A DNA stretch of 64,000 nt from Chitinophagales bacterium (GCA_023957245.1 JAMLHJ010000015.1:4542-68541), one strand, 5' to 3'; numbered from the stretch's first letter, positions 13,123 through 64,000 are shown. Translations and numbers: made by a program. The notes: generated by a model from the letters alone, not told the origin.

Positions 13123-13162
13123 AAAAAAATTCTACACTATCAATATTACTTGTAGCTATTCC

Positions 13163-43700: not shown

Positions 43701-43991
43701 GCATGGCAAAGATATACTTTATTCTACAATACTTTTCTTTAAAATGGAAAATAAATTTTATTGCAATAAGCAATTGACAATTAAATATATATACAAATTA
43801 AATCAAAAGGTAAATAATAAAAAATACAAATAACTTAATAATAAGCTTGCGCAATTCAAATAACTATTCTACTGCGTAATACAAATAAACTTTTCAAACC
43901 TCACAATAAGTCAATGCATTTTTTTATAATTTTTACTTCATTACATAGATTGGCAATAGTTTATAATCTTTCAAAAATAGTTATAGAAATT

Positions 43992-44022
43992 TTTGACTTT
44001 TTAATTGAACTGCGTATATTTG
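43992..44022 (+). promoter_or_regulatory. Bacteroidetes sigma70-type promoter facing the cassette array (Pc-like)
   Basis: TTTG (43992-43995), 19-nt spacer, TATATTTG (44015-44022) matching TTTG-N19-21-TAnnTTTG. Confidence 0.6.
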
Positions 44023-44040
44023 AGAGTTACAAGCAAGCCT
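44011..44040 (+). mobile_element. attI-like recombination half-site at the head of the array
   Basis: TGCGTATATTTGAGA-GTTACAAGCAAGCCT; GTTACAAGC..GCCT is complementary to the left arm AGGC..GCTTGTAAC of the site at 57046; no partner hairpin arm upstream. Confidence 0.65.
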
Positions 44041-44244
44041 AAAAGACGACACAACGACCTTCAACAAGACATCCAAAAAATCGACTTTTGAAATCCTTAC
44101 CAGAATTTTCAGTCGACCTTAACTCGACAGACAATTTCGCTGTACCTTGACACAGTACAACAGACCAACTTGGCGACACACAAGCTGACCCAAGAAAAAA
44201 TAAAACACCCCACCGCACAAAAAAATGAATTTCTGCCACCTCAT

Positions 44245-44309
44245 AAGTGGCACATTTGGCTTTGCCCTGCCCACAATCCGACCCTTCTGCAATGCCAAAA
44301 GAGCCACTT
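44245..44309. repeat. Hairpin with ACATTTG/CAAAAGAG core, left of the R-M/CBASS operon
   Basis: AAGTGGC-ACATTTG-GC...GC-CAAAAGA-GCCACTT. Confidence 0.6.
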
Positions 44310-44389
44310 TTACCCTACGCACAAAAGGCAGTACAGACGAAGCAACTTCAATTTGTAGAACCCCTACTTAAAATTATTTTAATAAAAAG

Positions 44390-44420
44390 TTTGGTAATAA
44401 GAAAACTTTACCTACTTTTG
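44390..44420 (+). promoter_or_regulatory. Promoter of the R-M/CBASS operon
   Basis: TTTG (44390-44393), 19-nt spacer, TACTTTTG (44413-44420), ending 24 nt before the first gene. Confidence 0.65.
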
Positions 44421-44444
44421 TAGCATCATTACAAAGGAATAAAT

Positions 44445-45002
44445 TTGAACACACTAATAAAAGATATCACAAACATCCAAACCGGACTCTTTGCAAAGCC
44501 CGCTGGCTTTGGCGAATTGGTGTATCTACAGTCTAAGCATTTTGACGAATTCGGACAGTTACATTCAATTCTTCACCCCGATTTGCCGACTGAGGGGATT
44601 TCTGAAAAGCACTTGCTAAAAGACGGTGATGTGCTTTTTGCGGCTAAAGGAACCAAAAACTTTGCAGCCGTTTTTGAAAACCACAACGAACCATCTGTGG
44701 CCTCCACTTCATTTTTTGTTATCAGACCAACAGACAACAAAGTGTTGCCTCAGTTTCTGGCTTGGTTTCTAAATAGCCATACCACACAAACCCTTTTAAA
44801 AGGACAAGCCATTGGCACTTCTATCCCTTCTATCTCAAAACAGGTTTTAGAGAATTTGGAAATACCAGTTCCAGATATTAAAACGCAAATGGCAATTGTA
44901 GAAATTTCAAAACTCCGCAACAAAGAAAAATCCTTGAAGCAGAAAATTGAAGCACTCAGAGAAAAACAAATTCAACAACAAATAATCAACGCAATAAAAT
45001 AA
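44445..45002 (+). CDS. hsdS: Half-size type I R-M specificity subunit (single TRD)
   Basis: LKDGDVLFAAKG, FLAWFLNS, GTSIPSISKQVLENLEIPVP..Q and a C-terminal helix; TTG start. Confidence 0.8.
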   Translation: MNTLIKDITNIQTGLFAKPAGFGELVYLQSKHFDEFGQLHSILHPDLPTEGISEKHLLKDGDVLFAAKGTKNFAAVFENHNEPSVASTSFFVIRPTDNKVLPQFLAWFLNSHTTQTLLKGQAIGTSIPSISKQVLENLEIPVPDIKTQMAIVEISKLRNKEKSLKQKIEALREKQIQQQIINAIK

Positions 45003-45007
45003 ATATC

Positions 45008-46570
45008 ATGGCTAAAATAACTCAGAAAGACATCAACGATGCAGTTTGGAAAGCTTGCGACACCTTTAGAGGCAGCATTGACCCAAGCGTTTACAAAGAC
45101 TATGTGCTTACTATGCTGTTCCTAAAATATCTCAGCGATGTGCATGACGATAAAATGGAAGGCTACTTAGCCAAATACAACGGTGATGTGGAACGTGCCA
45201 AACGTGCCATGCAACACGAACGCTTTATTGTGCCGGAGCATAGCCATTTTAAATATTTATACGACCACCGCAATGAAGCCAATATTGGTGAACTTATCAA
45301 TATTGCTTTGACTGATTTGGAAGAAGCAAACCGTGAGAAACTATACAGCGAAGACGGTGCAGGGATATTCCAAAATATAGACTTTAACAGCAGTAAGTTG
45401 GGTGAGCCAAAGGATAAAAACACCCGATTGAAAACCTTGCTGATTGACTTCAAATCCGACAAGCTGGATTTACGACCTTCTCATTTAGATGGTAATGACA
45501 TTATTGGCGGGGCTTACATGTTCCTGATTGAAAATTTTGCCAGTGATGCCGGAAAAAAAGCAGGTGAATTTTTTACGCCAAAAGAAGTTTCTACGCTTAT
45601 TGCTAAACTCACCAAAAGCAAACCCGGTTCACGTATTAGTGATCCAACTTGTGGTTCTGCTTCTCTTTTAATTAAAGCAGGTGAAGAAGTGGGTTCAGAT
45701 AATTTTTCATTGTACGGACAAGAAGCCAACGGTAGTACCTGGGCTTTGGCAGTAATGAATATGTTTTTGCATGGTTTCGATAATGCTACTATCCGCTGGG
45801 GCGATACTATCCGCAATCCCAAACTGAAAGAAGGTGATACCTTGATGAAGTTTGATACCGTTGTGGCAAACCCGCCATTCTCTTTAGACAAATGGGGAAA
45901 GGTAGAAGACAAGGATGGTGAAAAAACTACTGTGAGCTACGACCCTGAAAGCGATAAATACAACCGCTTTTGGAGAGGTGTGCCACCCAAAAGTAAAGGC
46001 GACTGGGCATTTATAAGCCACATGATAGAAACGCTGAACGAACATGGCAAAGCAGGTGTGGTTGTGCCGCATGGCGTATTGTTCCGTGGTAGCAGCGAAG
46101 GTCGCATACGCCAACGCACCATAGAAGAAAACCTGCTCGAAGCAGTAATTGGCTTGCCTGCAAATCTGTTTTTTGGTACAGGTATTCCGGCTGCTATTCT
46201 CATTTTCAACAAGCAAAAAAACAGCAACAATGTATTGTTTATTGATGCCAGCAAACACTACGAAAGTGCCAAAAACCAAAACAAGCTGCGTGAAAGCGAT
46301 ATTGAACACATTGTAACAACCTATCGTGATTTTGCAGCCGGCAAACTGCAACCCGGTGTGGTGGAAGACAAATACAGCTATGTAGCCACTCCCGAAGAAA
46401 TACAGGAAAACGACTTTAACCTGAACATCCCCCGCTATGTGGACACCTTTGAAGAAGAAGCAGAAGTGGACATTGCTGCAGTGCAGAAGGAGATTGAAAA
46501 ATTAGAAGATGAATTAAAAACGGTGCAGGCTGAAATGGATAAATACCTAAAACAATTAAATGCTATTTAA
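45008..46570 (+). CDS. hsdM: Type I R-M methyltransferase
   Basis: VWKACDTFRG, GEFFTP, DPTCGS, VANPPF, NLNIPRYVD. Confidence 0.96.
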   Translation: MAKITQKDINDAVWKACDTFRGSIDPSVYKDYVLTMLFLKYLSDVHDDKMEGYLAKYNGDVERAKRAMQHERFIVPEHSHFKYLYDHRNEANIGELINIALTDLEEANREKLYSEDGAGIFQNIDFNSSKLGEPKDKNTRLKTLLIDFKSDKLDLRPSHLDGNDIIGGAYMFLIENFASDAGKKAGEFFTPKEVSTLIAKLTKSKPGSRISDPTCGSASLLIKAGEEVGSDNFSLYGQEANGSTWALAVMNMFLHGFDNATIRWGDTIRNPKLKEGDTLMKFDTVVANPPFSLDKWGKVEDKDGEKTTVSYDPESDKYNRFWRGVPPKSKGDWAFISHMIETLNEHGKAGVVVPHGVLFRGSSEGRIRQRTIEENLLEAVIGLPANLFFGTGIPAAILIFNKQKNSNNVLFIDASKHYESAKNQNKLRESDIEHIVTTYRDFAAGKLQPGVVEDKYSYVATPEEIQENDFNLNIPRYVDTFEEEAEVDIAAVQKEIEKLEDELKTVQAEMDKYLKQLNAI

Positions 46571-46572
46571 TT

Positions 46573-47802
46573 ATGCTTACAAAAGAACAAAAACAACAAT
46601 TCAGCGATATTCTGGAAGAGTTAGGAAAGACGCTTGACATTCCAGAAACGCAATACGAAGCAGCCGTTAAAAGCTACGAAGCTGTTGGCAATTGGCTTGC
46701 AAAAGAGGATTCCACACTTGCACCTTACTCGCCTGAAATATTGCCACAAGGCTCATTCATGTTGGGTACAATGGTTAAGCCAATCAATGATAAGGACGAT
46801 TTAGATATTGATCTTGTATGCCAATTGAAAGGTAAAAATCCTGACTGGACACAGGAGGATTTAAAACATAAAGTAGGCGACCGATTAAAAGCACACGGAA
46901 CCTATAAAGAGATGCTTGATGAAGAAGGAAGGCGATGCTGGACTTTGGTTTATTCTGATGATGCAAATTATCACATGGACATTCTCCCTTCCATTGTTGA
47001 CAAAGGCTACAGAATGATTTTAGAAAAGGCCTTCTCTGATACTGAACTAAAGGATATTGAGAAACTTGGCATTCGCATAACCGATAATCAAACAGACAAC
47101 TATGAATGGGAAACCGATCATTTAGAATGGCTAAAGAGTAACCCTTTCGGTTATGGTCGTTGGTTTTTTCAGCAAGCAACTCTTGATTTCAAGAAATCAT
47201 TTTCTCTGAATGAATCAATAGCACCTGTGCCTAAATACAAAAAGGAAAAACTTCCCTTACAACGAGTAGTTCAAATTCTAAAAAGGCACAGAGATATGCT
47301 ATTTAATGGAAATGAGCACAAGCCAATATCCATTATCATCACAACCCTTGCTTCAAAAGCCTACAACAAGGAAACAGATATTATAGAGGCACTAATTAAT
47401 GTGGTTAACACCATGGAAAACTACATTGAAGAACGCTGGTCAGATGAACATGGTAAAAGGATAAAGTGGATTTCAAACCCTGTTAATGATGAAGAAAATT
47501 TTGCTGATAAATGGCAGGAATATCCGCAACGTGAAAAGAATTTTTACCACTGGCTTAGTGAAGTAAAGAAAGACCTGAACAACATAATTGGTCAAAGCGG
47601 AAAGGGTTTACAGTTCATCAATGAATCAATGATGAAGCGATTTGGTAAAGATGCAGTTACCAAAGCATTCAGTAGTTATGGTGAAAAATATTTAAAGCAA
47701 CGTGAAAGTGGTGCAATGAAAATGGCAGCAGGAACAGGAATGCTTGGTGAAACCGGAAGAACTTCTGTCCCCCAACACAAACCTTTTGGTAAGAATGAGT
47801 AG
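46573..47802 (+). CDS. cGAS/DncV-like nucleotidyltransferase (CBASS CD-NTase)
   Basis: PQGSFMLGT...DDLDIDLV, HMDILP, SNPFGY, VQILKRHRD, KPISIIITTL, NPVNDEENFADKW; tail HKPFGKNE. Confidence 0.92.
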   Translation: MLTKEQKQQFSDILEELGKTLDIPETQYEAAVKSYEAVGNWLAKEDSTLAPYSPEILPQGSFMLGTMVKPINDKDDLDIDLVCQLKGKNPDWTQEDLKHKVGDRLKAHGTYKEMLDEEGRRCWTLVYSDDANYHMDILPSIVDKGYRMILEKAFSDTELKDIEKLGIRITDNQTDNYEWETDHLEWLKSNPFGYGRWFFQQATLDFKKSFSLNESIAPVPKYKKEKLPLQRVVQILKRHRDMLFNGNEHKPISIIITTLASKAYNKETDIIEALINVVNTMENYIEERWSDEHGKRIKWISNPVNDEENFADKWQEYPQREKNFYHWLSEVKKDLNNIIGQSGKGLQFINESMMKRFGKDAVTKAFSSYGEKYLKQRESGAMKMAAGTGMLGETGRTSVPQHKPFGKNE

Positions 47803-48268
47803 AAAGTCGCTTTTAATACAAGAAGGTACTCTAAAGTCTTATTTCCCAGGAAGTCAAATAAAACGAAAAGGGGAATCGGAACTCACATGGATTGGAGTTG
47901 TTACTCCATCTCCTCTGAGTGCTACCTATCAATTAAAGCTGCACTACAAATATAATGAGGGAGCTAAGGTATATGTAATTGACCCAAAGCCATTGAAACT
48001 GGCAGAAGGGCAAGTTGTTTTACCACACGTTTATAGTACACCAGAACAACGCCTATGTCTGTATTATCCTAAAGACAAAGAGTGGAACACAGGCATGCTT
48101 TACGTACATACATTAATCCCATGGGCTTGTGAATGGCTTTGCCATTATGAATTATGGGTGGCAACGGGGACTTGGCATGGTGGAGGAGTACATCATCCAA
48201 ATGAGGCTGAAAAACAAGCCAACAAACAAAAAGAAAAAACTAATGAAGCAAGCAGCAGCAATAAATAA
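47795..48268 (+). CDS. CBASS-associated ubiquitin E2-like protein
   Basis: LPHVY...LCLYYP...EW...IPWACEWL.HYELW..TGTWHGGG; start overlaps the CD-NTase stop. Confidence 0.8.
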   Translation: MSRKSLLIQEGTLKSYFPGSQIKRKGESELTWIGVVTPSPLSATYQLKLHYKYNEGAKVYVIDPKPLKLAEGQVVLPHVYSTPEQRLCLYYPKDKEWNTGMLYVHTLIPWACEWLCHYELWVATGTWHGGGVHHPNEAEKQANKQKEKTNEASSSNK

Positions 48269-49496
48269 AGTTAGTGGAAATAAAAAGGTTTTATTCCAGA
48301 CTGAAATCCCAAGTGAATGGGATGTTTTTGAATTGGGTCAATTGTTTGAATTCAAAAATGGAATTAATGCCGGAAAGGAAAGCTACGGAAAAGGTGTCAA
48401 GTTTATTAACGTAATGGAAGTCATTTACCATGATTTTATTACTCCTGATATGATACCCGGGACAGTCCAAATATCAGATGAGCAGAAAGAGCTATATCTT
48501 GTTAAAGACGGTGATGTTCTTTTTAACAGAACATCTGAAACAATTGAAGAAATAGGAATGTCTGCCGTTTACAATGGTAACGAAGATGTTGTATTTGGAG
48601 GCTTTGTAATTAGGGGTAGACCTATTTTAAATGCAATTGACCCTGTTTATAAAAGATATTGTCTTCGTTCAAACTTAGTAAGAAATCAAATTATTAAAGG
48701 TGGACAGGGAGCAGTGCGTACAAATATTGGTCAGGGTGATTTATCACTCGTTAAAATAGCACTCCCCCCAATTGCCGAGCAAAAAAGCATAGGCCAGATA
48801 TTGTGTACAATTGATTTGACTATACAAAAGGTAGAACAGCTTGTAAATCAAAAAGAACTCCGCAAAAAATGGCTCATGCAGGAGTTGCTTTCGGGAAAAA
48901 GAAGACTGAATAGCTTTAATGGTGAAGTAAAACCAAAAGTTGTAGGACAGTTTATTAAAGAAGTTTCTGAAAGAAATAAGGAATTTAAGGTTACCAGAGT
49001 TCTCTCTGTTACCAATTCAAGAGGATTTATAAACCAGTCTGATCAGTTTGACAGGTCGGTTGCGAGTGAAGATGCATCAAATTATAAAATTGTGCGGAAA
49101 GGGCAATTTGCATATAACCCTTCAAGGGTTAATGTTGGCTCACTTGATTTACTAAGGAATTTTGATGAAGGGATTTTGAGTCCAATGTATGTTGTTTTTT
49201 CAACAGACGAAAAACATCTACTTGCTGACTTCCTATACTTTCATCTAAAAACACAATGGTTTTATGGTCATATTCCAATGTTCGTTCAAGGGAGCGTTAG
49301 AGATAGTTTATCATTTGAAGGACTTTGCTCAATGAAGTTTTTTATTCCAACCACAGAAGAGCAAAAAGCCATTGTTAAAGTGCTGCAAGCCGCAGATAAA
49401 GAAATATCACTTCTGAAATTGAAAGCTGAAAAACTGCGAGAAAAGAAAAAAGGCTTAATGCAGCAATTATTAACAGGAAAAATTAGGGTCAAATGA
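48243..49496 (+). CDS. hsdS: Type I R-M specificity subunit (two TRDs)
   Basis: EIPSEW, ALPPIAEQ, KKWLMQELLSGK, PTTEEQKAI, KKGLMQQLLTGK. Confidence 0.93.
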   Translation: MKQAAAINKVSGNKKVLFQTEIPSEWDVFELGQLFEFKNGINAGKESYGKGVKFINVMEVIYHDFITPDMIPGTVQISDEQKELYLVKDGDVLFNRTSETIEEIGMSAVYNGNEDVVFGGFVIRGRPILNAIDPVYKRYCLRSNLVRNQIIKGGQGAVRTNIGQGDLSLVKIALPPIAEQKSIGQILCTIDLTIQKVEQLVNQKELRKKWLMQELLSGKRRLNSFNGEVKPKVVGQFIKEVSERNKEFKVTRVLSVTNSRGFINQSDQFDRSVASEDASNYKIVRKGQFAYNPSRVNVGSLDLLRNFDEGILSPMYVVFSTDEKHLLADFLYFHLKTQWFYGHIPMFVQGSVRDSLSFEGLCSMKFFIPTTEEQKAIVKVLQAADKEISLLKLKAEKLREKKKGLMQQLLTGKIRVK

Positions 49497-50620
49497 GTGT
49501 AACAAATATTTCATCAGCAAATAGATACATTTTATGGGGTAAAGCTGCAGGAAGGTGCCAATACAGAGGATGTAACAAACCTTTGTTCGTGGATGCACTT
49601 ACAAAGAGTGAATTTAACCAAGCATATATAGCTCATATTGTTGCAGACGTGCCTGGTGGCCCTAGAGGAGATTCGGTTAGATCTGAATTGTTAAAAGACG
49701 ACATTTCTAATCTTATGCTTCTATGTGATGAACATCATAGACTAATTGATAAAAAGGATGTTGCAGGTCATCCTGAATCATTACTGTTAGTAATGAAAAA
49801 GGAACATGAAGATAGAATTGAAAAAGTAGCTTCAATCAATCCAAACATGCAAAGCCACATTGTTACTTACAAGGCAAATGTTGGCATTCATACTCCTGCT
49901 ATCTCCTACGAATCGGTTCGTGAATTCCTGTTGCCTTCACATTATCCGGCACAGTCACAGGCAATAGATTTAAGTTTGAGCAATAGCCCTCAGCGTGACA
50001 AAGACGCAAGCTTTTGGGCAACAGAATTAGAGAATCTTGAGAGTCAGTTTAATGAACAATTAAGGATAAAGTTTAGGAAAGGAGAAATCAATCATCTTTC
50101 CGTGTTTGCATTTGCCCCAATGCCTTTGCTCATAAGGCTTGGCACGCTTATAAATGATATTCAGCATGCTGAGATTCACCAGCCTGTAAGAGATCCAAAA
50201 ACATGGAATTTAGATGATGATGCAACTGAAACACTGTATAAAGTCATTGAGCCGACTGAAACGTTTCCAATAGTTGCCTTAAACATCTCATTAAGCGCTA
50301 CAATCAACAATGATCGAATCACTTCAGTTTTAGGAAGCGATTGTTCCATTTACACCCTAACTATTGATGCACCGTTCAATGACTTTTTAAAGTCTAAAAA
50401 ACAGCTTCAGGATTTTAGTATGGAAATGAGAAAGCTGCTGAATTATATTAAATCAAAGTGCGATGCTCAAACCCCACTGCACGTTTTTCCGGCCATGCCC
50501 ATTGCTACAGCAATTGAATTTGGCAGGGTTTGGATGCCAAAAGCAGATATGACTTTGCACATCTATGATGAGAACACAGCCAATAGTGGTTTTTTCAAAG
50601 CATTAGAAATAACAAATTAG
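49493..50620 (+). CDS. cap5: HNH-SAVED nuclease effector (Cap5-like)
   Basis: AAGRCQYRGC, AHIVA..GPRG, NLMLLCDEHHRLID HNH; SAVED motifs HLSVFAFAPMPLLIRLG and HVFPAMP. Confidence 0.88.
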   Translation: MSVTNISSANRYILWGKAAGRCQYRGCNKPLFVDALTKSEFNQAYIAHIVADVPGGPRGDSVRSELLKDDISNLMLLCDEHHRLIDKKDVAGHPESLLLVMKKEHEDRIEKVASINPNMQSHIVTYKANVGIHTPAISYESVREFLLPSHYPAQSQAIDLSLSNSPQRDKDASFWATELENLESQFNEQLRIKFRKGEINHLSVFAFAPMPLLIRLGTLINDIQHAEIHQPVRDPKTWNLDDDATETLYKVIEPTETFPIVALNISLSATINNDRITSVLGSDCSIYTLTIDAPFNDFLKSKKQLQDFSMEMRKLLNYIKSKCDAQTPLHVFPAMPIATAIEFGRVWMPKADMTLHIYDENTANSGFFKALEITN

Positions 50621-50625
50621 AAAAT

Positions 50626-50865
50626 ATGGCACGAAAAGAAAGACATGTAGTTCCCAATTCTGAAAAAGGCGGTTGGGATTCGAAACGAGAAAATGCAGAA
50701 AGGGTTTCCAAGCATTTTGAAACCAAAAAGGAAGCTATGGACTGGAGCCGAGAAAAATCAAAACAGGAAAAGTCTGAATTGATTCCACATGGAAAAGATG
50801 GAAAGATTCAGAATCCAAACAGTTATGGAAATGATCCCAATCCGCCAAAAGATAAAAAGAGATAA
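50626..50865 (+). CDS. DUF2188-family small protein
   Basis: HVVPN..GGW, F.TKKEA, ELIPHGKDGKIQ..NSYGNDP.PPKD. Confidence 0.85.
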   Translation: MARKERHVVPNSEKGGWDSKRENAERVSKHFETKKEAMDWSREKSKQEKSELIPHGKDGKIQNPNSYGNDPNPPKDKKR

Positions 50866-50923
50866 TAAAGCAAAATCCGCACAATAAAGTGGATGGCTTT
50901 ATTGTGCAAAAACAGAATATAAA

Positions 50924-52615
50924 ATGCTTATGACCATAGCAGAACTAAAACAGCTTAAAGAAAGCGAAGATAAAGTAGAGTTTAAAGAGGCAAAAAATCA
51001 ATACGCCTACAACAGCAGCCGCAAGAGTGTGCTGGGCTACACCGTAGCATTTGCCAATGAAAAAGGTGGTTATTTGGTATTTGGGTTGGAAGATGCACAC
51101 CCACACACGGTTTGTGGCTCAAAAGCTTATGAAGGTAGAGAAGGTCAATTGGAGCAAGATGTTTACCGTGATACCGGAGTAAGAATACAAACAGAAGTTT
51201 TGTTTGAGGGAACGAATCGGGTGTTGGTTATAAAAATTCCATCTCGTCCCGTAGGTAAACCACTTTATTTTAATGATGTGCCATTGATGAGGGTTGGTGA
51301 TGGTTTGGATAGAATGTCGGAAGAAATGTATCTCTCCATCATCCAGGAACAAGAACCCGACTTCTCTGCCAAATTTTGCGAAGGCATCAGCATTGCTGAT
51401 TTGGATGAAATGGCCATCAAAAAAATGAAAGAGAGCTATGCCCGCAAACAAAAGAATCCGGGCTTTTTGCAACTTAGCACCGAGCAGGTTTTAACAGATT
51501 TAAAATTACAAGACAATGGTAAGCTCACCTATGCCGCCTTGGTTTTATTGGCTAAAAAAGAAGTAATTCATGCTAAACTACCCCAAAGCAAAACTATTTG
51601 GGAATTTCGCAACAGCGAAGCACAAATACACCACGATAGCCGTGAGGTAATTGATGAACCTTTATTTATTGCCATTGACAGCATTTGGAAACTCATCAAT
51701 CAACCGACACTCAATAAAAAATATCCGATACAGTCGGGAGCTTACATTTTCGATTTGTATGATTTTAACGAAGAGGTAATTCGTGAAGCCGTTCTCAATG
51801 CCATTGCTCACAGGGATTATACCATTACCAGCGAAGCGGTTATAAAACAATATCCCAACAAAATTATCATTACCAACCCGGGTGGTTTCCCTAAAGGCGT
51901 AACAATAGAAAATATTCTTACAGTGAGCAGCACACCCAGAAGCCGCTTAATGACAGAAATTTTGGAAAAGACCGGGTTGGTGGAACGCAGTGGTCAGGGT
52001 GTAGATAAGATATTCTCCATCACCCTATCCGAAGGCAAAGCCGAACCTGACTATAAAAATTCAGATATGTTTCAAGTTTCGCTAATTCTGAAGACTGAAA
52101 TTATTGACAAGGCATTTCACGTATTCATAAGCCAATACCAAAACAGCGAGAAAGAGCCAAAATTGGGTGTAGAGCAAATCATTACGCTTTGCAAAATACG
52201 GAACGGCATATTCCAAAACCTTAAAACCGAAATTGCAAGTCAGTTAGAAAAATCAGGTTTAATTGAAAAAATTTCTGGACATACCAACCGATATACATTG
52301 TCGCAAGAATACCATGCACTGGTAAATGACGGTTTAAAAATTGGTAAAAGGTATTTGGTAAAAGAGATAGAACTCATACTTCTGGCATTGCAAGGAAATG
52401 CTTTGAAGATTGGCGATTTAGAAGATTTATTGAAAGAATCCCTATCAAGAAATCAGATAAACTATTTAAAGATGAAATTGATGGAAGATGAAGTGCTGAA
52501 AGTAGAAGGAAAAATTAAAGGAGCCAGGTATTCTATTGCTGATAAGTATGCTGATTTGAGAGGTGATGTTTTACTAAGTGCAGTTATTGCAGAACTAAGA
52601 GGTAAATATGAATAA
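50924..52615 (+). CDS. AlbA_2/Schlafen-like domain + HATPase-like putative regulator
   Basis: ESEDKVEFKEA, AFANEKGG.LVFG, REAVLNAIAHRDY, NPGGFP, VERSGQGVDKI. Confidence 0.85.
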   Translation: MLMTIAELKQLKESEDKVEFKEAKNQYAYNSSRKSVLGYTVAFANEKGGYLVFGLEDAHPHTVCGSKAYEGREGQLEQDVYRDTGVRIQTEVLFEGTNRVLVIKIPSRPVGKPLYFNDVPLMRVGDGLDRMSEEMYLSIIQEQEPDFSAKFCEGISIADLDEMAIKKMKESYARKQKNPGFLQLSTEQVLTDLKLQDNGKLTYAALVLLAKKEVIHAKLPQSKTIWEFRNSEAQIHHDSREVIDEPLFIAIDSIWKLINQPTLNKKYPIQSGAYIFDLYDFNEEVIREAVLNAIAHRDYTITSEAVIKQYPNKIIITNPGGFPKGVTIENILTVSSTPRSRLMTEILEKTGLVERSGQGVDKIFSITLSEGKAEPDYKNSDMFQVSLILKTEIIDKAFHVFISQYQNSEKEPKLGVEQIITLCKIRNGIFQNLKTEIASQLEKSGLIEKISGHTNRYTLSQEYHALVNDGLKIGKRYLVKEIELILLALQGNALKIGDLEDLLKESLSRNQINYLKMKLMEDEVLKVEGKIKGARYSIADKYADLRGDVLLSAVIAELRGKYE

Positions 52616-52892: not shown

Positions 52893-52898
52893 AAAATA

Positions 52899-56821: not shown

Positions 56822-56834
56822 GAAGCCTACACAC

Positions 56835-56903
56835 AAAAGCACACACATTTGCAAGCCGCACAAGCCCAAGCACAGACCAAAGCTTGCAAAAGAGTGTGCT
56901 TTT
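56835..56903. repeat. Hairpin with ACATTTG/CAAAAGAG core, right of the R-M/CBASS operon
   Basis: AAAAGCACAC-ACATTTG-CAAGC...GCTTG-CAAAAGA-GTGTGCTTTT. Confidence 0.6.
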
Positions 56904-57045
56904 CACCAACCCAAAAAGAAATTCATTTTTTTCTTCCCACCCTTCGGTGTTTTATTTTTTCGCCACCCACAACCGACACAAAAACAGTTGGACGGAGACA
57001 GCGAAAACCTTTACTGAGCAAGGCTTGACAATGACGGAAGACAGA

Positions 57046-57196
57046 AGGCCAGCTTGTAACATGGGTTTGGCGTCATGCGGGGTGAAGTGCTTAAATTCAA
57101 GTGTAGTTTTTCAAATCAACTTTAGTGCAAGGTTGACAATTTTTTGCCCTGAAATCCCGCACGAACGCCAAGCCCAAAAACGTTGTGCCTCATGCT
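57046..57196 (+). mobile_element. attC-like site 1
   Basis: Left GCTTGTAAC; inner arms GGGTTTGGCGT.ATGCGGG / CCCGCA..AACGCCAAGCCC; right GTTGTGCCT at 57182. Confidence 0.8.
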
Positions 57197-57232
57197 AAAA
57201 AACAACCAGACACCTAATAGAAATTGAAAGAA

Positions 57233-58468
57233 ATGGAAAAAATATGTTTTGTGATTATGGGTTATGGTAAAAAGACCGACCCGACACTAGGGAAAACCTA
57301 CGACCTTGACGCAACATATCATCGTATAATTAAGCCTGCGGTTGTAAAGGCAGGCTATACTTGCATAAGAGGTGATGAAATTCTAGAATCGGGAATTATT
57401 GACAAAAGCATGTATGCTCTGCTTATTAGAGCAGATTTAGTTATTGCAGACATAACTACATTTAACCCAAATGCAATTTACGAACTTGGCATTCGACACG
57501 CTGCAAGACCCTACTCTACAATTGTAATGAAAGAAAAAGATGGCAATATACCATTTGACATAAATCATAATAAAACGTTTACATACGCTCATATGGGGGA
57601 AGACATAGGGGCATCAGAAGCTGAAAGATGTGTAACACACTTAAGCAGTTTAATTCTCGAAATAGATAAAGCTAAAGAAACAGACAGCCCGCTTTTTCAC
57701 CATATTAGAGGTGTTGAACCATATACATTACCCGAAGATGAGTATGTTCAAATTATAAAAGATTTAGCATCTAAAGAGAAAAGCATTTTCGCCCTTGTTG
57801 AGAAAGCCAAGATAGAAATGAAAAATGGAAACTTTGCAGAGGCGTCTAAAATGTGGAGAAAGCTAACAGAGAAAGTCGAAAGTGATACTTATTTTATCCA
57901 ACAATGGGCTCTATGTACATATAAAGACAAAACTGTCAATCCAAAAGTGGCATTGAATGATGCACTTACTATCATAAGTAGATTAGAACCCGAGAACCGA
58001 AACACTACAGACCCTGAAACTTTGGGTATAACAGGAGCTATTTATAAGCGACTTTGGCAAAATGACATAGAAGTAATTGAATATCTTGATAGAGCAATCG
58101 AATATTATAAAAGAGGATTCTCAATAAATCAAGATTATTATACAGGAGAAAACTATGCACTTTGCCTAGACTTCAAATCAGAAATTACATCTGATTCAGA
58201 TGAAAAAATATATTTAAAAGTAGAGGCTAAAAAGACCAGAAAAGAAATCATAAACATTATTGAAAAACTCAGTGATGACGAGGATTTTGAGATAAGAAGT
58301 GATTTAAAATGGATTTTTGCAACATTAGCGAATTGTCATCTTGCCCTAGACAATGTTGACCTGTTTGAGAAGTATAAATCCTTATTTGAAAACTGTCACC
58401 CTGAGGCATGGGAAATGGAAACTTTTCAAGATTCCGTGAAACACATTAATCAATTAAATTCAAAATAA
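57233..58468 (+). CDS. Deoxyribosyltransferase-like N-terminal domain + TPR protein (DUF4071/ASK1 N-terminus-like)
   Basis: CFVIMGYG, RGDE, ADLVIADITTFNPNAIYELGIRHA, IPFDI; TPR region with DPETLGITGAIYKR and YYTGENYA. Confidence 0.75.
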   Translation: MEKICFVIMGYGKKTDPTLGKTYDLDATYHRIIKPAVVKAGYTCIRGDEILESGIIDKSMYALLIRADLVIADITTFNPNAIYELGIRHAARPYSTIVMKEKDGNIPFDINHNKTFTYAHMGEDIGASEAERCVTHLSSLILEIDKAKETDSPLFHHIRGVEPYTLPEDEYVQIIKDLASKEKSIFALVEKAKIEMKNGNFAEASKMWRKLTEKVESDTYFIQQWALCTYKDKTVNPKVALNDALTIISRLEPENRNTTDPETLGITGAIYKRLWQNDIEVIEYLDRAIEYYKRGFSINQDYYTGENYALCLDFKSEITSDSDEKIYLKVEAKKTRKEIINIIEKLSDDEDFEIRSDLKWIFATLANCHLALDNVDLFEKYKSLFENCHPEAWEMETFQDSVKHINQLNSK

Positions 58469-58469
58469 A

Positions 58470-58874
58470 ATGGCAAAAGAGTTTAAAATTTTCATTAGCC
58501 ATTCATGGGCACATAGTGATGACCTTGAAGCTTTACAAAACTTACTTAACGCACGCGGCTACTTTAATGTAGAATTTCTAGAAGCGTCAAAGAAAGTTCC
58601 AATCAACTCTGAGAATGCAACTTATGTGAAATCAGTACTTAGAGATAGAATTCGAAATTCCAATATCATTTTGGCACTAGCAGGCATTTACGCATCACAT
58701 AGCGAATGGATGATTTGGGAACTTGAAACTGCACAATCTTATGGAATCCCGATTGTAGGAGTAATTCCCAGAGGACAAGAAAGAATTTCGACAGAAGTTT
58801 ATTCAAGGTCTAAAATTGATGTCCGTTGGAATACTGAAAGCATTGTACAAGCAATTAGAACATATGCTATATAA
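58470..58874 (+). CDS. TIR-domain protein (ThsB/DUF1863-like)
   Basis: IFISHSW, SEWMIWELETA (catalytic Glu), PIVGVIP.G, VRWNTESIV.AI. Confidence 0.85.
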   Translation: MAKEFKIFISHSWAHSDDLEALQNLLNARGYFNVEFLEASKKVPINSENATYVKSVLRDRIRNSNIILALAGIYASHSEWMIWELETAQSYGIPIVGVIPRGQERISTEVYSRSKIDVRWNTESIVQAIRTYAI

Positions 58875-59025
58875 AGCACGAAGGCACAACATCACCTATA
58901 CGCAAGCAGGGGTTTCGTGCTTCGTAGGACAGGAAAGTGCTAAATTTGAAGTTCAGTTCTTCGTAGGTAGTTCAGTGGTTAAAATCCCTGCCTGCGTATA
59001 GCTGAGAACCGTTATGGGCAAGTTT
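58875..59025 (+). mobile_element. attC-like site 2
   Basis: Left AGGCACAAC; inner arms CTATACGCAAGCAGGG / CCCTGCCTGCGTATAG; right GTTATGGGC at 59011; begins immediately after the TIR stop codon. Confidence 0.85.
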
Positions 59026-59183
59026 ATGAAACATAGCGGTCAGACAAGAGAACCACCAAAGACAAGTATTCTCGACAGTTCTTAACGGACTTCGACATAT
59101 TATTATCGTGGAGACCAGCGACCACAAAAAAACGGGGCGGACACCGAAAAGCCAAACGAGTAGGAAACAAAATTTTATATATA

Positions 59184-59495
59184 ATGAAACTTCTAATTAA
59201 CCAAATAATCCTGCTGATTTTAGTTTTTATTTTCAATTCATGCTCAAAATCAAATAATATAGTTGGGTGCTGGAAAGACCAACATTCCCAAACGATTATT
59301 ATGAAAGATGATGGGACTCTAACTAGGGCTTCTCATGAAGGAACTTGGAAATTAATAGATAATGACAGATTAAATTTTATGTGGTCAGATGGTAGTACCG
59401 ACACTCATACAATAGTAAAAATAAATAATAATTTAATGGTAATTAAATATAACGGTTTTCTTGAATTTACTTGGTACAAAGAAGATTGCAATTAA
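59184..59495 (+). CDS. Small lipoprotein, unknown function
   Basis: Lipobox FNSC, IVGCW, GTWKL pattern. Confidence 0.7.
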   Translation: MKLLINQIILLILVFIFNSCSKSNNIVGCWKDQHSQTIIMKDDGTLTRASHEGTWKLIDNDRLNFMWSDGSTDTHTIVKINNNLMVIKYNGFLEFTWYKEDCN

Positions 59496-59518
59496 AAACA
59501 TTAACCTAATAAATTTAT

Positions 59519-60097
59519 ATGACTGACGAAGAAACAAAATTGGATAGTGCATACAAAGTAACGATTGCCGCAAGAAATTTTCATTTAGACCACTTTAACA
59601 AATGGATGACATATTATTATGTTGCGGTAGCGGCCATTTTTGTTGGATTTTATAATATCAAGGACGAAAATTTTACGATGAAAATTGGTCTGCTTGCATT
59701 AGGTTTATTCGTAAGCGTTCTTTGGCATTTATCGTGTAAGGGCTATTATTTTTGGGTGAAAAATTGGACTTATCAAGTGTTACGTTTAGAAAAGGAAATA
59801 GACGACAAAATCAAAGTTTATTCTGTATTTTCAAAATCAGTTAAAGAAAAGGACGACAAAATTTTTATACCAACACAATCAGCAAATATTTCTACTTCTA
59901 AAGTTACTTTATTTCTATCTTTTATTATTTCCCTTACCTGGACATACTTGCTAATAGACAAATTGACAAGTTGTTTTTGCATTTGTGGTTTCAACATAAT
60001 ACTCAATTTAGTTTTATCATTAGTATCTACATTTGCGTTGACACTTTTATTAGGAGTATTTTTCAAGACGGACATTAAAAACCATCTACTAAACTGA
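59519..60097 (+). CDS. Four-TM membrane protein, possible defence effector
   Basis: ARNFHLDHFNKWMTYY, WHLSCKGYYFWVKNW, STSK; four hydrophobic segments. Confidence 0.65.
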   Translation: MTDEETKLDSAYKVTIAARNFHLDHFNKWMTYYYVAVAAIFVGFYNIKDENFTMKIGLLALGLFVSVLWHLSCKGYYFWVKNWTYQVLRLEKEIDDKIKVYSVFSKSVKEKDDKIFIPTQSANISTSKVTLFLSFIISLTWTYLLIDKLTSCFCICGFNIILNLVLSLVSTFALTLLLGVFFKTDIKNHLLN

Positions 60098-60114
60098 CAA
60101 TGAAGAACGAAAGA

Positions 60115-60262
60115 AAACCAGCCCATAACAGCACCTACCCAAAAGTGGCGGTTCAGTGGTTAAATCAAGCTTTATGCTTCTATCAAAGTTTGTGCTTGGT
60201 TGACAGTAAAATGCTTCGAATTCGCCACCTTCGGGTAGCTGCGAACCGTTATAGCCAATAGC
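60115..60262 (+). mobile_element. attC-like site 3
   Basis: Left GCCCATAAC; inner arms GCACCTACCC..AAGTGGCG / CGCCACCTTCGGGTAGCTGC; right GTTATAGCC at 60248. Confidence 0.85.
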
Positions 60263-60297
60263 TGGACAAACGCACCGCAAAAATACTATCGACAGAA

Positions 60298-63159
60298 ATG
60301 TTTGAAATCAGAAAAGGAACAGCGACTAAAAATTACGAAAATACTTTTTTCAGGGAATTTGCAGACAATCTGAAAAAGATGTTTGACAAGTATTCGCTTG
60401 ACGGGTTACTTATTGCCAATTCTGAATGTGAAGCAGAAAGCAGACTTCAAATTGACGCTTTACTGATTACACCAAAAGCAGTTTGTATAATTGACTTCAA
60501 AAACTTTGGTGGTAAAATTACATTACCCAAAAATGCAAAATCAGAATTTGACTTTGGTGTTTGGACAAATGAAAATGGCGAACAAATAAAAGGCGGTAGT
60601 TCTATAAATCCGTTTATACAACTAAAAACACAAAAAGAACGCTTTATCAAAGTAGTAGAAAAGCACATACAACCAAAACTGCCACTTCGTGGCAGTTCGT
60701 TTAATGCGTTTCATACTGTTAGAGCCGTTTGTTTTCAGAAACCAATTGAATTGAATGGCAAAATTCCATCAAATGAAGAATTGAACTTTTTCATTTTTGA
60801 CAAGAACAATTATCTTGAAACCATCAAAGATATAATTGACATCAATGACAAAGATGTTACTCTAACAATAGAGGCTTTTGACCTTTTTAAAGAAGTTTTC
60901 AGAGCCGACATTTTTGACACTTCCGAAAAATATGACCAAACAAACGATTTTACTTCTTATCATACCGAATTAGATTTTGAAAATCTTTATCCTGACCAAA
61001 AATCGGCTCTCAATGAAATTGAAAATTTCATTAAATCTGAAGAAGAAAAGATTTTTGTTTTGCAAGGAACTTCATTAAGTGGAAAAACACATTTAATTCC
61101 ATTCATTCAAGAAGTTGCGTTTAATAATCAAATTACGGAAGTGAAATTATTTGCTTCATCAAGTCGAATTTCTAATAATCTTTTAAAAAGTTCAAATTTA
61201 GAATTTGAAAGCATTTACTCATACATCTACGGGGGAAACTCAACAATCGTAAACGAAGAAGAAAGTGAAGAAGAAAACGAAAATTCTTTGAATTTGGAAG
61301 TCGTTCCGCTTTTAAAATCTGACGATACGGAAGAAGCAATTTTTATCGTTGATGAAGCTCATTTAATTTCGGACAATTATCATCAATCCGTTGATTTAAG
61401 GTTTGGTTCAGGTAAATTACTAAAAGATTTTTTGGAATTTTCAGACTTGAAAAATACCAAAAGAAAAGTAATTTTCATTGGAGATAGTTTTCAACTATCA
61501 TTAGGCAAAAAAGAAGAAGCGTCATTAAATCCTGAATATTTGAATGAAGAATACGGTTTTAAAAACAAAGCATTTCAACTAATTGACAAAGAAAACAAAT
61601 CGGTCATCGTTTCAGAAGCACTCAAAGCCGTTAATTGTATTCGTCAACAATCATTTAACAATCTTTCATTCAGCTTTTCAGAGAATATAAGAACATTAGC
61701 AAAAGAAGATTTGAAGACTGAAATTGAAAGTTCGTTAAATGCAAACTCTCACATTCTTTGTTATTCAAATTCTGATGCTCAAAAAGTAAATTATTGGATT
61801 AAAAATTCCATTCTAAAAAATGGAAATGATTTGACAAAAGGCGATTTTGTCATTTTTGGCAACAATATCCGTGTCGAGGATGAAAACGACCCATTTGCAG
61901 AACCAAAGAAAATTTACAATGGACAGTTTGGAACTATTTTGAACGTTTCGGATTTAATCACAAAAGATGTAAAACTTCTTACGCCTTTGTATTTTCGTGA
62001 AACCAAAATTCAACTTAAAGAAACAAATCATATTCTTACGTTTTTGAGCTTTGAAAATTTCCGTTTGAGCGATAAAGGAGAATTATCTAAAGAAGAAATA
62101 ATTTCATTCAATATTTTACTCAATCAACTTGCCGAAAAGGAAATTTCCAACTTTAAAAGTGGTAAATATCACGCTGATGAAGATTTAAAAAGTTTATTGG
62201 AAAAATACGACCCAAAAACAAGAAAAGGAATAACTAAACTGCAAAAAGCACTTCAAAAGCATTTGAGAAACGTTCCATCATCAGAATATTACAAATACAA
62301 AAACTCGGCACAAATTCGTTTTGGTTGGGCTTTGACCGTTCACAAATCAATGTCTTACAAATGGAATGAAATATATTTCAATGTTGAAACAGGTGGCGGA
62401 AAAACAAATGAAACTTATTTCAAATGGATTTATACTGGTTTAATCAGAGCAAATCAAAAAGTTAACTTAATCAATTACGAGCCGATAAGTCCATTTTTCA
62501 AATTGACGATAAATCCAGCCGTTCCGAAAATTGACAAAGGAAAAGAGTTATTTTATGTAGCAGACATAACGACTGACTTATCAAATTTCAATAAAACAAT
62601 ATCAGAAAAATACAAGTTTCCAGATATTGAAAATAAATCTTCGTTATTACAGTTGTTTCAGTTTGTTGAAAACAAAATTTCACAAAACAACTTATCAATA
62701 AATCTAATTAATCACCCAAATTATCAGGAATTATACGAAATAAAAGGAAATTCGGGCGAAGTAGCAACAATTTCGATTTATTATAATAACAGGGGACAAT
62801 TTAGAATGCCTACTTTGATGAAATCAACACCAAAAGAATTTGGCGAAGAACTTATCAATCTTTTGAAATCAGAAAATCAGATTTCCGCCTTTGCTTTTAT
62901 CCAAAGTAATTGGAGAAAATCGGCTTATGAACAATTATATCAAAATTTAAAATCAAAAGAAATTGGTTTTGGTTACATCATTCAAGTTCCGTACAAAGAC
63001 ACAATACAATTCAATAACGGAACGGAAGCCCTTGTTGCAGATTTGTATTATGACGGAGACGGATTTTTTACATCAATGATTGCAACATCTTGCACTAACA
63101 TTGACTTTTGGGCTGAAATTCAAAATGTTTTTAACGACCTTAAAAATAACTTAACTTAA
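60298..63159 (+). CDS. NERD nuclease + SF1 (RecD-like) helicase fusion
   Basis: QIDALLI...IIDFKN NERD; GTSLSGKT, IVDEAH, FIGDSFQL, ALTVHKSMS, WIYTG. Confidence 0.85.
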   Translation: MFEIRKGTATKNYENTFFREFADNLKKMFDKYSLDGLLIANSECEAESRLQIDALLITPKAVCIIDFKNFGGKITLPKNAKSEFDFGVWTNENGEQIKGGSSINPFIQLKTQKERFIKVVEKHIQPKLPLRGSSFNAFHTVRAVCFQKPIELNGKIPSNEELNFFIFDKNNYLETIKDIIDINDKDVTLTIEAFDLFKEVFRADIFDTSEKYDQTNDFTSYHTELDFENLYPDQKSALNEIENFIKSEEEKIFVLQGTSLSGKTHLIPFIQEVAFNNQITEVKLFASSSRISNNLLKSSNLEFESIYSYIYGGNSTIVNEEESEEENENSLNLEVVPLLKSDDTEEAIFIVDEAHLISDNYHQSVDLRFGSGKLLKDFLEFSDLKNTKRKVIFIGDSFQLSLGKKEEASLNPEYLNEEYGFKNKAFQLIDKENKSVIVSEALKAVNCIRQQSFNNLSFSFSENIRTLAKEDLKTEIESSLNANSHILCYSNSDAQKVNYWIKNSILKNGNDLTKGDFVIFGNNIRVEDENDPFAEPKKIYNGQFGTILNVSDLITKDVKLLTPLYFRETKIQLKETNHILTFLSFENFRLSDKGELSKEEIISFNILLNQLAEKEISNFKSGKYHADEDLKSLLEKYDPKTRKGITKLQKALQKHLRNVPSSEYYKYKNSAQIRFGWALTVHKSMSYKWNEIYFNVETGGGKTNETYFKWIYTGLIRANQKVNLINYEPISPFFKLTINPAVPKIDKGKELFYVADITTDLSNFNKTISEKYKFPDIENKSSLLQLFQFVENKISQNNLSINLINHPNYQELYEIKGNSGEVATISIYYNNRGQFRMPTLMKSTPKEFGEELINLLKSENQISAFAFIQSNWRKSAYEQLYQNLKSKEIGFGYIIQVPYKDTIQFNNGTEALVADLYYDGDGFFTSMIATSCTNIDFWAEIQNVFNDLKNNLT

Positions 63160-64000
63160 TGGATAACCAAATTGAAACAAAGCAAGAACTTGATTCTAAA
63201 GCTAAAAGCAATTTGGAATCTAATCCAAATGAAGCAGTCAAGATTTATAAATCAATGTATGAGCAATATCCCGACCAATTTAATAGCTGGGACGCTTTTT
63301 ACTCAATTAAAGCGATGAGACTTTCTACTTCATTTGATATTTTTTGGGCAAGTGAATTGGCAGAAAAATATAAAGATGAAAAAGTATGTGGATTGTATGG
63401 TTGGCTTGTTTTTGATAAGTGTGTAAAGGGAAAAGAGCGTACAGAAATAATAAATAACGAACAACACATTTCATCACTTATAAATTTATCGTCACAGAAG
63501 AATTTAAAAGAAGATGACAAGTTTCCTTGTCCAACAACAATTTCAATTTTAAAACTATGCGATGCACACGCTGAAAATTTATTTAATGCTCGAAAAATAA
63601 ATGATTTATTGTCAGGGTTAGACTATAACTTGTTATCTGACAAAGCACAATCCATAGAAACACAGACAAGAGGCGAAGTTGAATTGTCTTCTGACCTTGA
63701 AAAATATTTTGCTCTCAAAACAAAAGCATTATTGAAACTAAACGAATTTGAATCTTGTAAAGAACTGTCTTCAATTGCACTTCAATCAATTCAAAAGTTT
63801 CATTACGATAATGATTTATGGTTTAAAATGAGAATTGCTTTATCAGAAGATGGTCTTGGTAATTCAGAAAAGAGCGAAGAATTATTTAAAGAGTTATTAA
63901 GCAGTAAAGCAGGTAGTGGCAAATGGTTTTTATATCGTGATATTTCGCAAATATATTTTGAGCAGGATAATTTTGAAAAGGCTTGGAAATATGCTGTTGA
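63159..64000 (+). CDS. TPR-like helical protein (partial, runs off window end)
   Basis: ATG overlaps the helicase stop (TAATG); open to window end: MDNQIETKQ...YGWLVFD...LWFKMRIA...KWFLYRDIS...AWKYAV. Confidence 0.75.
   Translation, partial: MDNQIETKQELDSKAKSNLESNPNEAVKIYKSMYEQYPDQFNSWDAFYSIKAMRLSTSFDIFWASELAEKYKDEKVCGLYGWLVFDKCVKGKERTEIINNEQHISSLINLSSQKNLKEDDKFPCPTTISILKLCDAHAENLFNARKINDLLSGLDYNLLSDKAQSIETQTRGEVELSSDLEKYFALKTKALLKLNEFESCKELSSIALQSIQKFHYDNDLWFKMRIALSEDGLGNSEKSEELFKELLSSKAGSGKWFLYRDISQIYFEQDNFEKAWKYAV

Follow-up and report, generated by a model that had tools for sequence, protein, structure and literature searches.

The window analysed here is a 64,000-nt stretch from the genome of a Chitinophagales bacterium (GCA_023957245.1, JAMLHJ010000015.1:4542-68541), corresponding to C7:4542-68541 in our numbering of the 23 contigs of the 3.09-Mb assembly. 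From position 44027 onward it carries a row of four co-oriented gene cassettes that runs past the end of the window, and the G+C content steps from 0.33 to 0.40 at 44000, near the start of this array. The first cassette follows a region resembling attI, the entry site of integrons, and each cassette ends in a long imperfect hairpin resembling attC, the cassette-borne site (Table 1). We consider it very probable that the genome has at least four such arrays, of which this is one, and that they belong to an integron of a Bacteroidota type served by a recombinase other than IntI.

Table 1. Features of the cassette array and its left border, in window coordinates (positions above 64000 are window-equivalents on the same contig; ORF, open reading frame; aa, amino acids).
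Feature	Coordinates	Strand	Part of	Basis or remarks
Cobalamin riboswitch	43526-43713	-		Rfam, 99.9 bits; ahead of TonB-dependent receptor gene 41568-43499
attI-like platform copy	43836-44026	+		Ends in CTGCGTATATTTGAGA followed by GTT; no recombinase gene adjoining
Candidate outward promoter, TTTG-N19-TATATTTG	43992-44022	+	Platform	Pattern match; ends 4 nt before G/TT
Cassette 1, 13,156 bp	44027-57182	+		Pfam, PADLOC; no internal site
Left arm of inverted repeat	44194-44234	+	Cassette 1	Two perfect 16-mers
Truncated hsdS	44445-45002	+	Cassette 1
hsdM	45008-46570	+	Cassette 1
CD-NTase	46573-47802	+	Cassette 1	SMODS/DncV-like; PADLOC cyclase, E 7e-142
hsdS	48129-49496	+	Cassette 1
HNH-SAVED effector	49493-50620	+	Cassette 1	PADLOC, E 5.5e-156
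DUF2188	50626-50865	+	Cassette 1
SLFN/AlbA_2 with HATPase_c_4	50924-52615	+	Cassette 1
94-aa ORF	52608-52892	+	Cassette 1
hsdR	52899-56126	+	Cassette 1
YgjP-like peptidase	56123-56821	+	Cassette 1
Right arm of inverted repeat	56917-56961	+	Cassette 1	Pairs with 44194-44234
attC-like site 1	57048-57194	+		R'' GCTTGTAAC, 57052-57060; R' GTTGTGCCT, 57182-57190
Cassette 2, 1,829 bp	57183-59011	+		Pfam, PADLOC
TIR-like/TPR-S protein	57224-58468	+	Cassette 2
ThsB-like TIR protein	58470-58874	+	Cassette 2
attC-like site 2	58878-59023	+		R'' AGGCACAAC, 58882-58890; R' GTTATGGGC, 59011-59019
Cassette 3, 1,237 bp	59012-60248	+		Pfam, Rfam
DUF805 RNA motif RF03081	59103-59170	+	Cassette 3	Rfam, 70.2 bits; just ahead of the first ORF
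103-aa ORF	59184-59495	+	Cassette 3
8xMP membrane protein	59519-60097	+	Cassette 3
attC-like site 3	60117-60260	+		R'' GCCCATAAC, 60121-60129; R' GTTATAGCC, 60248-60256
Cassette 4, runs past the window	60249-64000	+		Pfam, PADLOC
NERD-helicase-TBP-TOTE protein	60298-63159	+	Cassette 4	PADLOC PDC-M16A
TPR protein	63159-64379	+	Cassette 4
103-aa ORF, then site 4 (64748)	beyond window			After TPR protein

The array is marked by a rule of complementarity that links successive sites. The sequence-only reading had described three hairpins in which each left arm (R'') is matched over nine letters by the right arm (R') of the preceding site, and every coordinate and letter of the hairpins and of the chained 9-mers was verified in the sequence. 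Cassette 1 starts with GTTACAAGC at 44026-44034, and its own site opens with GCTTGTAAC. From the last right arm it had been predicted that the next left arm would end in GGCTATAAC; the contig has a single occurrence of this sequence, at C7:69289 (window-equivalent 64748, which is 748 bp past the window), as the beginning of a fourth hairpin site, which the end of the contig truncates. In the source genome the rule holds for 4 of 4 pairs on C7, the site beyond the window included, for the single pair on C3 (GTTAGTGGC at attI, GCCACTAAC at the site) and for both pairs on C1.

A covariance model, R1, was built from the bottom strands of the three window sites; it gives site 1 131.5 bits on the bottom strand, and a scan of the window with filters off returned three sites only, none of them inside 44027-57047. 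R1 has 17 matches in the source genome at an expectation value (E) up to 1, with 12 at E <1e-6 on one strand, and several of the matches lie at contig ends (C1, C3, C7) or starts (C1, C22). An alignment was then made of 68 sites with E up to 1e-6, taken from the window, from five further stretches of the source genome and from 32 loci in other genomes. Over all arrays of this set, 22 of 30 adjacent pairs agree at the 6 variable arm positions, compared with 200 of 5000 random draws of a left and a right arm (4%) and with 5 of 68 sites when the two arms of one site are compared. Two of the eight failures come from an alignment gap, and at least two are pairs with a weaker intervening site that was dropped at the E cut-off. 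AAC is found in 63 and GTT in 66 of the 68 sites. The chained complementarity is accounted for if each integrated cassette starts with the right-hand end of the site that belongs to it.

The sites are conserved in structure. The three in the window share a mean column identity of 72% and a common predicted fold of 26 pairs, 11 of them with compensatory changes. In the 68-site alignment, which was fitted to R1 and is therefore favourable to its structure, 90.4% of the cells of these 26 pairs are paired, and the covariation score is 0.484, compared with 0.036-0.064 when partners are slid by 1-3 columns. The long stem has 19 pairs, and double changes occur at 16 of them. Pairing often fails at the three outermost pairs of the R box (28 of 64, 23 of 57 and 17 of 66 cells unpaired), as predicted if the two arms of an integrated site are chimeric. 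Site length has a median of 144 nt (range 107-209), and the sites carry a one-sided 4-nt bulge beside the R box. The bottom-strand tetramer GCAC is directly repeated in the loops, with 113 occurrences in the 68 loops versus 13.5 in shuffles (a count biased by the origin of the model), and its reverse complement occurs once in these loops. A scan against Rfam found no family that covers the sites. As judged with the model built here, they are imperfect palindromes bounded by AAC and GTT in which structure is kept over sequence, as in attC.

By analogy with integrons, the bottom strand would be the one that folds. Three positions keep G-U pairs on the bottom strand (in 63, 59 and 34 sites), where the top strand would have C-A mismatches, and in 48 of the 68 sites, which are not independent of one another, the bottom-strand fold has the greater stability, with a mean difference of -1.9 kcal/mol. 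Site 1 of the window, to which we return below, goes the other way.

The platform region spans about 195 bp before the first G/TT and is present in four copies in the source genome. The window copy is 93% identical to C3:117521-117713, 90% to C1:460780-460972 and 75% to C19:230052-230240, and all four end in CTGCGTATATTTGAGA followed by GTTA, that is, in GAGA followed by GTTA (the C19 copy reads CTGTG). Only the C3 copy adjoins an intact recombinase gene, which is divergent; the first cassette follows, and then a site at the contig end. At C1 residues 1-56 of the recombinase are left, and nothing at C7 and C19; a stray piece encoding residues 76-122 lies at C21:6882-7022. An attI region next to a recombinase gene with the first cassette starting at G/TT is the integron arrangement, and it is found here at C3, with the window's own copy being without the gene.

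The same junction recurs in other genera. At 14 loci with the divergent layout, the 9-mer expected at the start of the first cassette was predicted from the left arm of the recombinase-nearest site. In 9 of the 14 it stands directly after gcgtatatttgaga (or a 1-2-letter variant), 156-234 nt from the recombinase start; in 2 of the 14 it follows the end of a site that had gone undetected, and 3 loci gave no occurrence of it. TATATTTG is part of the junction motif and is conserved in all four attI copies and in the other genera; in the window it belongs to the pattern TTTG-N19-TATATTTG, which fits the consensus of Bacteroidetes promoters of the -33/-7 type. We suspect that the platform motif may read outward into the cassettes as a promoter. 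Since the window's attI-like copy starts about 120 nt beyond the cobalamin riboswitch, the array borders on the promoter region of a btuB-like gene.

Several contig ends and isolated sites bear on the extent of the arrays. Exact words from the end of C7 have no match in any other contig, where the far end of the window array was sought. A cassette starting with GTTAGTGGC at C19:230237 reaches the end of its contig without a site, and a site at C1:1882-2024 has GCCACTAAC as its left arm and a degenerate right arm (GTCAGACTG); the end of C19 and the start of C1 may join here, and the C1 site may be the end of an array. Two lone sites on C12 (288381-288523 and 63728-63873, the latter also with a degenerate right arm) lie away from any array that we found.

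The recombinase encoded on C3 is a 364-aa, Xer-like tyrosine recombinase and the sole intact gene of its kind in the source genome; the genome's own two Xer-type genes lie elsewhere, on C1 and C22. In an alignment with IntI1 and the IntI of a Vibrio plasmid, both taken from annotated records, and with the genome's two Xer proteins, R213, K238, H302, R305, H328 and Y337 are all conserved. The protein scores 209.6 bits with the XerA-type model NF040815 (cut-off 220), 178.5 with the IntI model TIGR02249 (cut-off 265, in two pieces), 170.3 with XerC and 161.6 with XerD. A sequence search of the Protein Data Bank (PDB) gave the XerA-like 4a8e as the best match (E 1.3e-35); VchIntIA (2a3v) aligns in two pieces, and its residues 214-248 have no counterpart in the C3 protein. 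A C-terminal SPLD motif is common to the recombinase and the two IntI proteins and is not found in the two Xer-type proteins of the genome. The extra N-terminal part comprises 84 residues that match no Pfam family, and a search of a protein atlas with the N-terminal 88 residues returned only unnamed Bacteroidota clusters, at scores (0.82-0.84) below the meaningful level. In a 12-row tree, the family and the two IntI proteins split from the genome's Xer proteins (100/99), with long branches and thin sampling. The sequence-only reading had anticipated an IntI-like tyrosine recombinase in this genome: an intact tyrosine recombinase does adjoin an attI copy, on C3, and it is neither an IntI nor encoded in the window.

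Given these affinities, an Xer/dif-type system has to be considered. Modules of this type, of which the pdif modules of Acinetobacter plasmids are known examples, use short sites of double-stranded DNA whose two binding arms are separated by 6-8 bp. On such an explanation the palindromes would be pairs of inverted binding sites, and no strand would fold. The XerA-type best matches (NF040815, 4a8e) and the lack of the IntI insertion are what it would lead one to expect of the enzyme. The sites fit it poorly: the arms are about 125 nt apart rather than 6-8 bp, the 19-pair stem between them covaries, which paired protein-binding sites do not require, and G-U pairs are kept on one strand only. The sites are also in direct order with an attI-like entry point, and the 12-row tree, its long branches notwithstanding, groups the family with the two IntI proteins, away from the Xer proteins of the genome. 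We therefore regard a double-stranded, pdif-like system as improbable.

The association of enzyme and sites extends across the phylum. Relatives of the recombinase are encoded in 505 of 568 candidate stretches from a collection of species-representative genomes. The best 80 of these 505 (57-68% identity), whose record titles include Chitinophagaceae, Flavobacteriales, Sphingobacteriales, Cytophagales, Saprospiraceae, Bacteroidales and others, were taken as the linkage sample, with sites counted at E up to 0.01. At least one site was found at 35 of the 80 loci; of the 27 loci with 3 kb or more on each side, 22 have at least one. In 29 of the 80 cases the contig stops less than 1.5 kb upstream of the recombinase gene. 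Upstream sites are always on the strand opposite to the gene and downstream sites always on the strand of the gene, except at locus L091. Among the 35 site-bearing loci, 21 have only upstream, divergent sites and 13 only downstream sites on the same strand. Sites are present in 21 of 26 relatives, including 15 of 15 of the same family (one genome of the same genus has 36), and in 60 of 151 evenly drawn Bacteroidota genomes (E up to 1e-8). Close relatives of the recombinase are rarer, with 89 of 401 genomes at E up to 1e-60 and, besides the source genome, only 7 of 401 that reach 55% identity over the full length; the 401-genome and 151-genome samples overlap only partly. A plasmid of Hymenobacter volaticus (locus L125, NZ_CP095066.1) carries at 6478-9202 two tandem related recombinase genes, each seemingly split into two ORFs, among small hypothetical genes, and may represent a decayed platform.

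This linkage bears on the idea that the array is what is left of a classical integron, a cluster of attC sites lacking an integrase (CALIN), whose canonical IntI was lost or falls in an assembly gap, with the Xer-like gene as a bystander. The window has no recombinase, and the assembly is in 23 contigs, several of which end inside sites, as such an account would allow. Against it, no match reaches the cut-off of the IntI model in a genome scored 100% complete, and the Xer-like family stands beside sites in the 22 of 27 well-flanked loci, in several orders and with a constant spacing to a conserved attI junction. For Bacteroidetes, the accessible portion of the IntegronFinder 2.0 paper reports only In0 elements earlier and now, in addition, one complete integron, in Salinibacter. 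We consider a remnant of a classical integron very improbable, the least probable of the explanations discussed here.

Evidence that the cassettes move comes from public sequencing data. About half of the sequence words of 56900-60400 are present in 20 public runs from 12 studies. Cassette 2 was found in contigs of four runs from four studies, with 3-4 differences in about 1,730 bp (~99.8% identity), and the same four runs essentially lack cassettes 1, 3 and 4, whose patchy coverage at low identity we do not count as evidence. Alignment to cassette 2 sets in at 57175-57181 and runs out inside site 2 or at 59013; the contigs turn to unlike sequence before 57180 and after 59013, 59014, 59016 and 57184, and their loose ends show different neighbours at GTT. 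Such near-identity in four studies with other neighbours indicates recent movement. It also bears out the expectation that a gene block should, elsewhere, break at the GTT positions. Joints such as that from 57127 to 60228, with 13 other letters between, were considered as deletions of cassettes 2-3 and set aside, as they look like the sites of other cassettes with similar arms. Together with the structured, covarying sites, the fixed triplet with its own-arm start and the attI-like junction, the reuse of cassette 2 supports the earlier proposal that these units are integron-type cassettes.

The locus itself has changed as well. In the closest relative (G001, 78% identity) the TonB-receptor locus is present, with neither attI nor the array there. 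Synteny with this relative points to the interior of C23, beside an ordinary gene, from which we conclude that the locus was rearranged. A 13.5-kb stretch, C23:68929-82428, is absent from the syntenic region of G001 and may be another island.

An array of once-mobile cassettes that are now fixed, with hairpins that serve as terminators or have no function, is accordingly hard to reconcile with cassette 2 in its other surroundings, with the array-free locus of the closest relative and with one recombinase gene that is intact in all catalytic residues. In RNA form the top strand would hold C-A mismatches at the places where the bottom strand has G-T. Signs of decay do exist: two of the four attI copies are without any recombinase sequence and a third retains only the 56-residue fragment, recombinase pseudogene pieces lie next to arrays in genomes of the same genus, and no circle was seen in the assembled contigs. 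On balance a fossil array seems to us unlikely to a high degree.

We thus favour a Bacteroidota-type integron, and by analogy with known integrons its operation can be outlined. The ~144-nt imperfect palindrome at the end of each cassette would be the analogue of attC, with recombination occurring within the invariant AAC/GTT triplet. The array begins at the attI-like copy abutting the promoter region of the TonB-receptor gene under cobalamin-riboswitch control. The enzyme is likely to be the 364-aa Xer-like recombinase encoded beside another attI copy on C3, acting in trans. The bottom strand of a site may fold and serve as its substrate, and cassettes may leave as circles and re-enter at attI, where the promoter-like motif could read into them. 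The cargo of the window array is mostly anti-phage, with a type I restriction-modification (R-M) system interleaved with a two-gene cyclic-oligonucleotide-based anti-phage signalling system (CBASS), a TIR pair and a PDC-M16/TOTE system.

A number of observations count against this interpretation or parts of it. The window contains no recombinase gene, so that action in trans has to be assumed; no protein of the source genome (scored 100% complete) reaches the IntI cut-off, and both segments that are inserted in the catalytic domain of IntI1 and the Vibrio-plasmid IntI are absent from the recombinase family. With no insertion and a score below the cut-off, this is not a canonical integron. No conserved single-base, extrahelical bulge was seen in the sites, and because the insertion that binds extrahelical bases is missing too, the folded-strand mechanism of integrons is not simply transferable. 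The energetic preference for the bottom strand is modest, and in site 1 of the window the top strand is the more stable (-23.4 vs -21.8 kcal/mol). The site model was trained on three window sites, and sites found with R1 lean to that form. In five genomes of the same genus the recombinase is represented only by a paralogue of 39-42% identity, and sites are present in families in which no close relative of the recombinase was found; enzyme and site thus do not correspond one to one. The promoter pattern is at chance in the window as a whole (4 occurrences vs 3.83 expected from shuffles), so support for the motif comes from its position and its conservation across attI copies and other genera. 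Finally, the public runs are assembled contigs, in which breaks at repeats are expected, and those of the four runs contained no circle and no rearranged junction of the window array.

The largest cassettes have a further feature in common. In cassette 1 a long inverted repeat, found nowhere else in the source genome, encloses the whole 12.8-kb gene block. The leader (~300 nt) and trailer (~250 nt) of this cassette are homologous to those of cassettes in two other genomes. The first cassette of G730 (10,607 bp; locus L132, G730:C3:1412000-1429000, positions 3553-14159) carries an Rrf2 regulator, a COX1/FixO-type oxidase, hemerythrin/ScdA, MarR and others, and looks like a nitric-oxide stress operon; it follows an attI-like remnant of only 14 nt beside an acyl-ACP thioesterase gene, and no recombinase gene lies close to it. 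The G581 cassette (9,704 bp between two sites; locus L135, G581:C1:650800-670799, positions 576-10279) carries a ferritin-like protein, TetR and a complete resistance-nodulation-division (RND) efflux operon (OEP-HlyD-AcrB). These two cassettes have the frame alone in common, with homology running from the G of GTT to GTTA, and both obey the chain rule (GTTATAAGC and GCTTATAAC). With that of the window, three genomes have different cargos in one frame, which, like the reuse of cassette 2, is an indirect sign that cassettes may be excised and inserted. Their inverted repeats are at the same place as that of the window and are spelled differently, yet they are still complementary; as the G730 and G581 repeats are nearly identical to each other, they amount to two independent versions only. 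In G690 a leader of this type has no site within 20 kb.

For three cassettes we modelled the circle by joining trailer, site and leader and folding the bottom strand. The joint is predicted to form a single interrupted hairpin of about 430 nt with the site at its tip, at -110.6, -100.0 and -108.3 kcal/mol, compared with -83.9, -73.1 and -72.9 kcal/mol for the integrated arrangement of neighbours; 25 mononucleotide shuffles gave mean energies of -58 to -66. The pairing of leader and trailer may act in DNA or in RNA.

The genes inside the frame have a history of their own. The hsdS'-hsdM and hsdR-ygjP parts of cassette 1 have 80-87% DNA identity to R-M loci in five genomes of other families, in which the middle genes differ from those of cassette 1. 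The homologues in two of these genomes (G142 and G777) have no site within the 17-18 kb stretches examined, and the R-M block thus exists outside cassettes too.

Defence genes are found in three of the four cassettes of the window array. Cassette 1 encodes HsdM, HsdS and HsdR of a type I R-M system, with an extra truncated hsdS, and also the CD-NTase and the effector with a nucleotide sensor that define CBASS; the two CBASS genes are split by hsdS and placed between hsdM and hsdR. Cassette 2 was considered as a Thoeris system and is not one, as the partner of its ThsB-like protein is the TIR-like/TPR-S protein and not ThsA. Cassette 3 gave no defence match with PADLOC; the DUF805 RNA motif inside it means that a cassette can bring its own cis-regulatory RNA. 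PADLOC matched 7 of 10 tested proteins of the window array and 0 of 10 proteins from the genome's other arrays, which include SnoaL, GNAT, OGG-like, ADP-ribosylglycohydrolase, pentapeptide-repeat and Cass2 proteins and unknowns. The first cassette on C3, for instance, encodes a pentapeptide-repeat protein and Cass2, an 'integron-associated effector binding protein'. The description of these units as an anti-phage library therefore fits the window array, cassette 3 apart, and does not extend to the other arrays of the genome.

Comparison with the classical integrons of class 1 and Vibrio brings out both likeness and difference. Shared with them are a platform with a tyrosine recombinase gene, an adjoining entry site and an outward promoter-like motif; co-oriented cassettes that each end in an imperfect palindrome bounded by AAC and GTT; crossover in a conserved triplet, with the first bases of a cassette complementing its own left arm; structure that is kept more than sequence; and, in the sister arrays, Cass2 and GNAT-type cargo. 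Unlike them, the recombinase here lacks both IntI insertions and is extended by 84 residues at its N terminus, the sites have a uniform length of ~144 nt with a 4-nt one-sided bulge and no conserved extrahelical bases seen, GCAC is repeated in the loops, there are several attI copies per genome, and cassettes reach 13 kb. In Treponema-type integrons the integrase gene is co-oriented with the cassettes. The same-strand layout of 13 of our 35 loci, beside the divergent layout of 21, is similar, whereas the enzyme family and the form of the sites differ. The XerA, XerC and XerD resolvases are the best profile and structure-sequence matches of the recombinase and have the same two-domain core, whereas the recombinase sits at an attI/cassette platform and has the extra N-terminal part and an IntI-like SPLD motif.

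Integrons have reportedly been described as stores of anti-phage systems in 2025 by Getz et al. and by Kieffer et al., and the available part of a preprint on a glycosylase treats them in the same way. The accessible text of Darracq et al. (bioRxiv 2024.07.02.601686) likewise has defence systems packaged as cassettes, in integrons of Vibrio and other Pseudomonadota and as small, streamlined systems, in contrast to the full R-M and CBASS genes within 13 kb found here; it lists Bacteroidota among clades 'previously found without any integrons'. According to Smyshlyaev et al. 2021, the insertion is essential for integron function and is not fully conserved in an 'integron-like' subgroup. Our search of the full-text literature, with subscription journals and supplements outside its scope, found no description of such Bacteroidota cassette arrays.

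Integrons are the textbook example of a device that captures and shuffles genes; their known range is mostly in Pseudomonadota, and almost none have been recorded in surveys of Bacteroidetes. If our interpretation is true, the Bacteroidota, a major phylum of soil, water and gut, would have a comparable gene-capture device, capture would work without a protein domain thought to be essential for reading folded attC sites, and an origin of integrons from Xer-like recombinases would become testable. We see roughly even chances that the Bacteroidota own a widespread integron branch, with an Xer-like enzyme without the IntI insertion, a new N-terminal domain, ~144-nt hairpins with loop motifs, platforms that multiply within a genome and a leader/trailer frame that would lengthen the hairpin of an excised circle to ~430 nt and move operons of 10-13 kb. 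Should this be so, the folded-DNA cassette strategy would have arisen twice or would predate the IntI insertion, and standard tools and definitions would miss these integrons. Cassettes can be of operon size, one of them holding an RND efflux pump, and the sites give a way to delimit accessory and defence genes in Bacteroidota genomes, as is now done for Vibrio.

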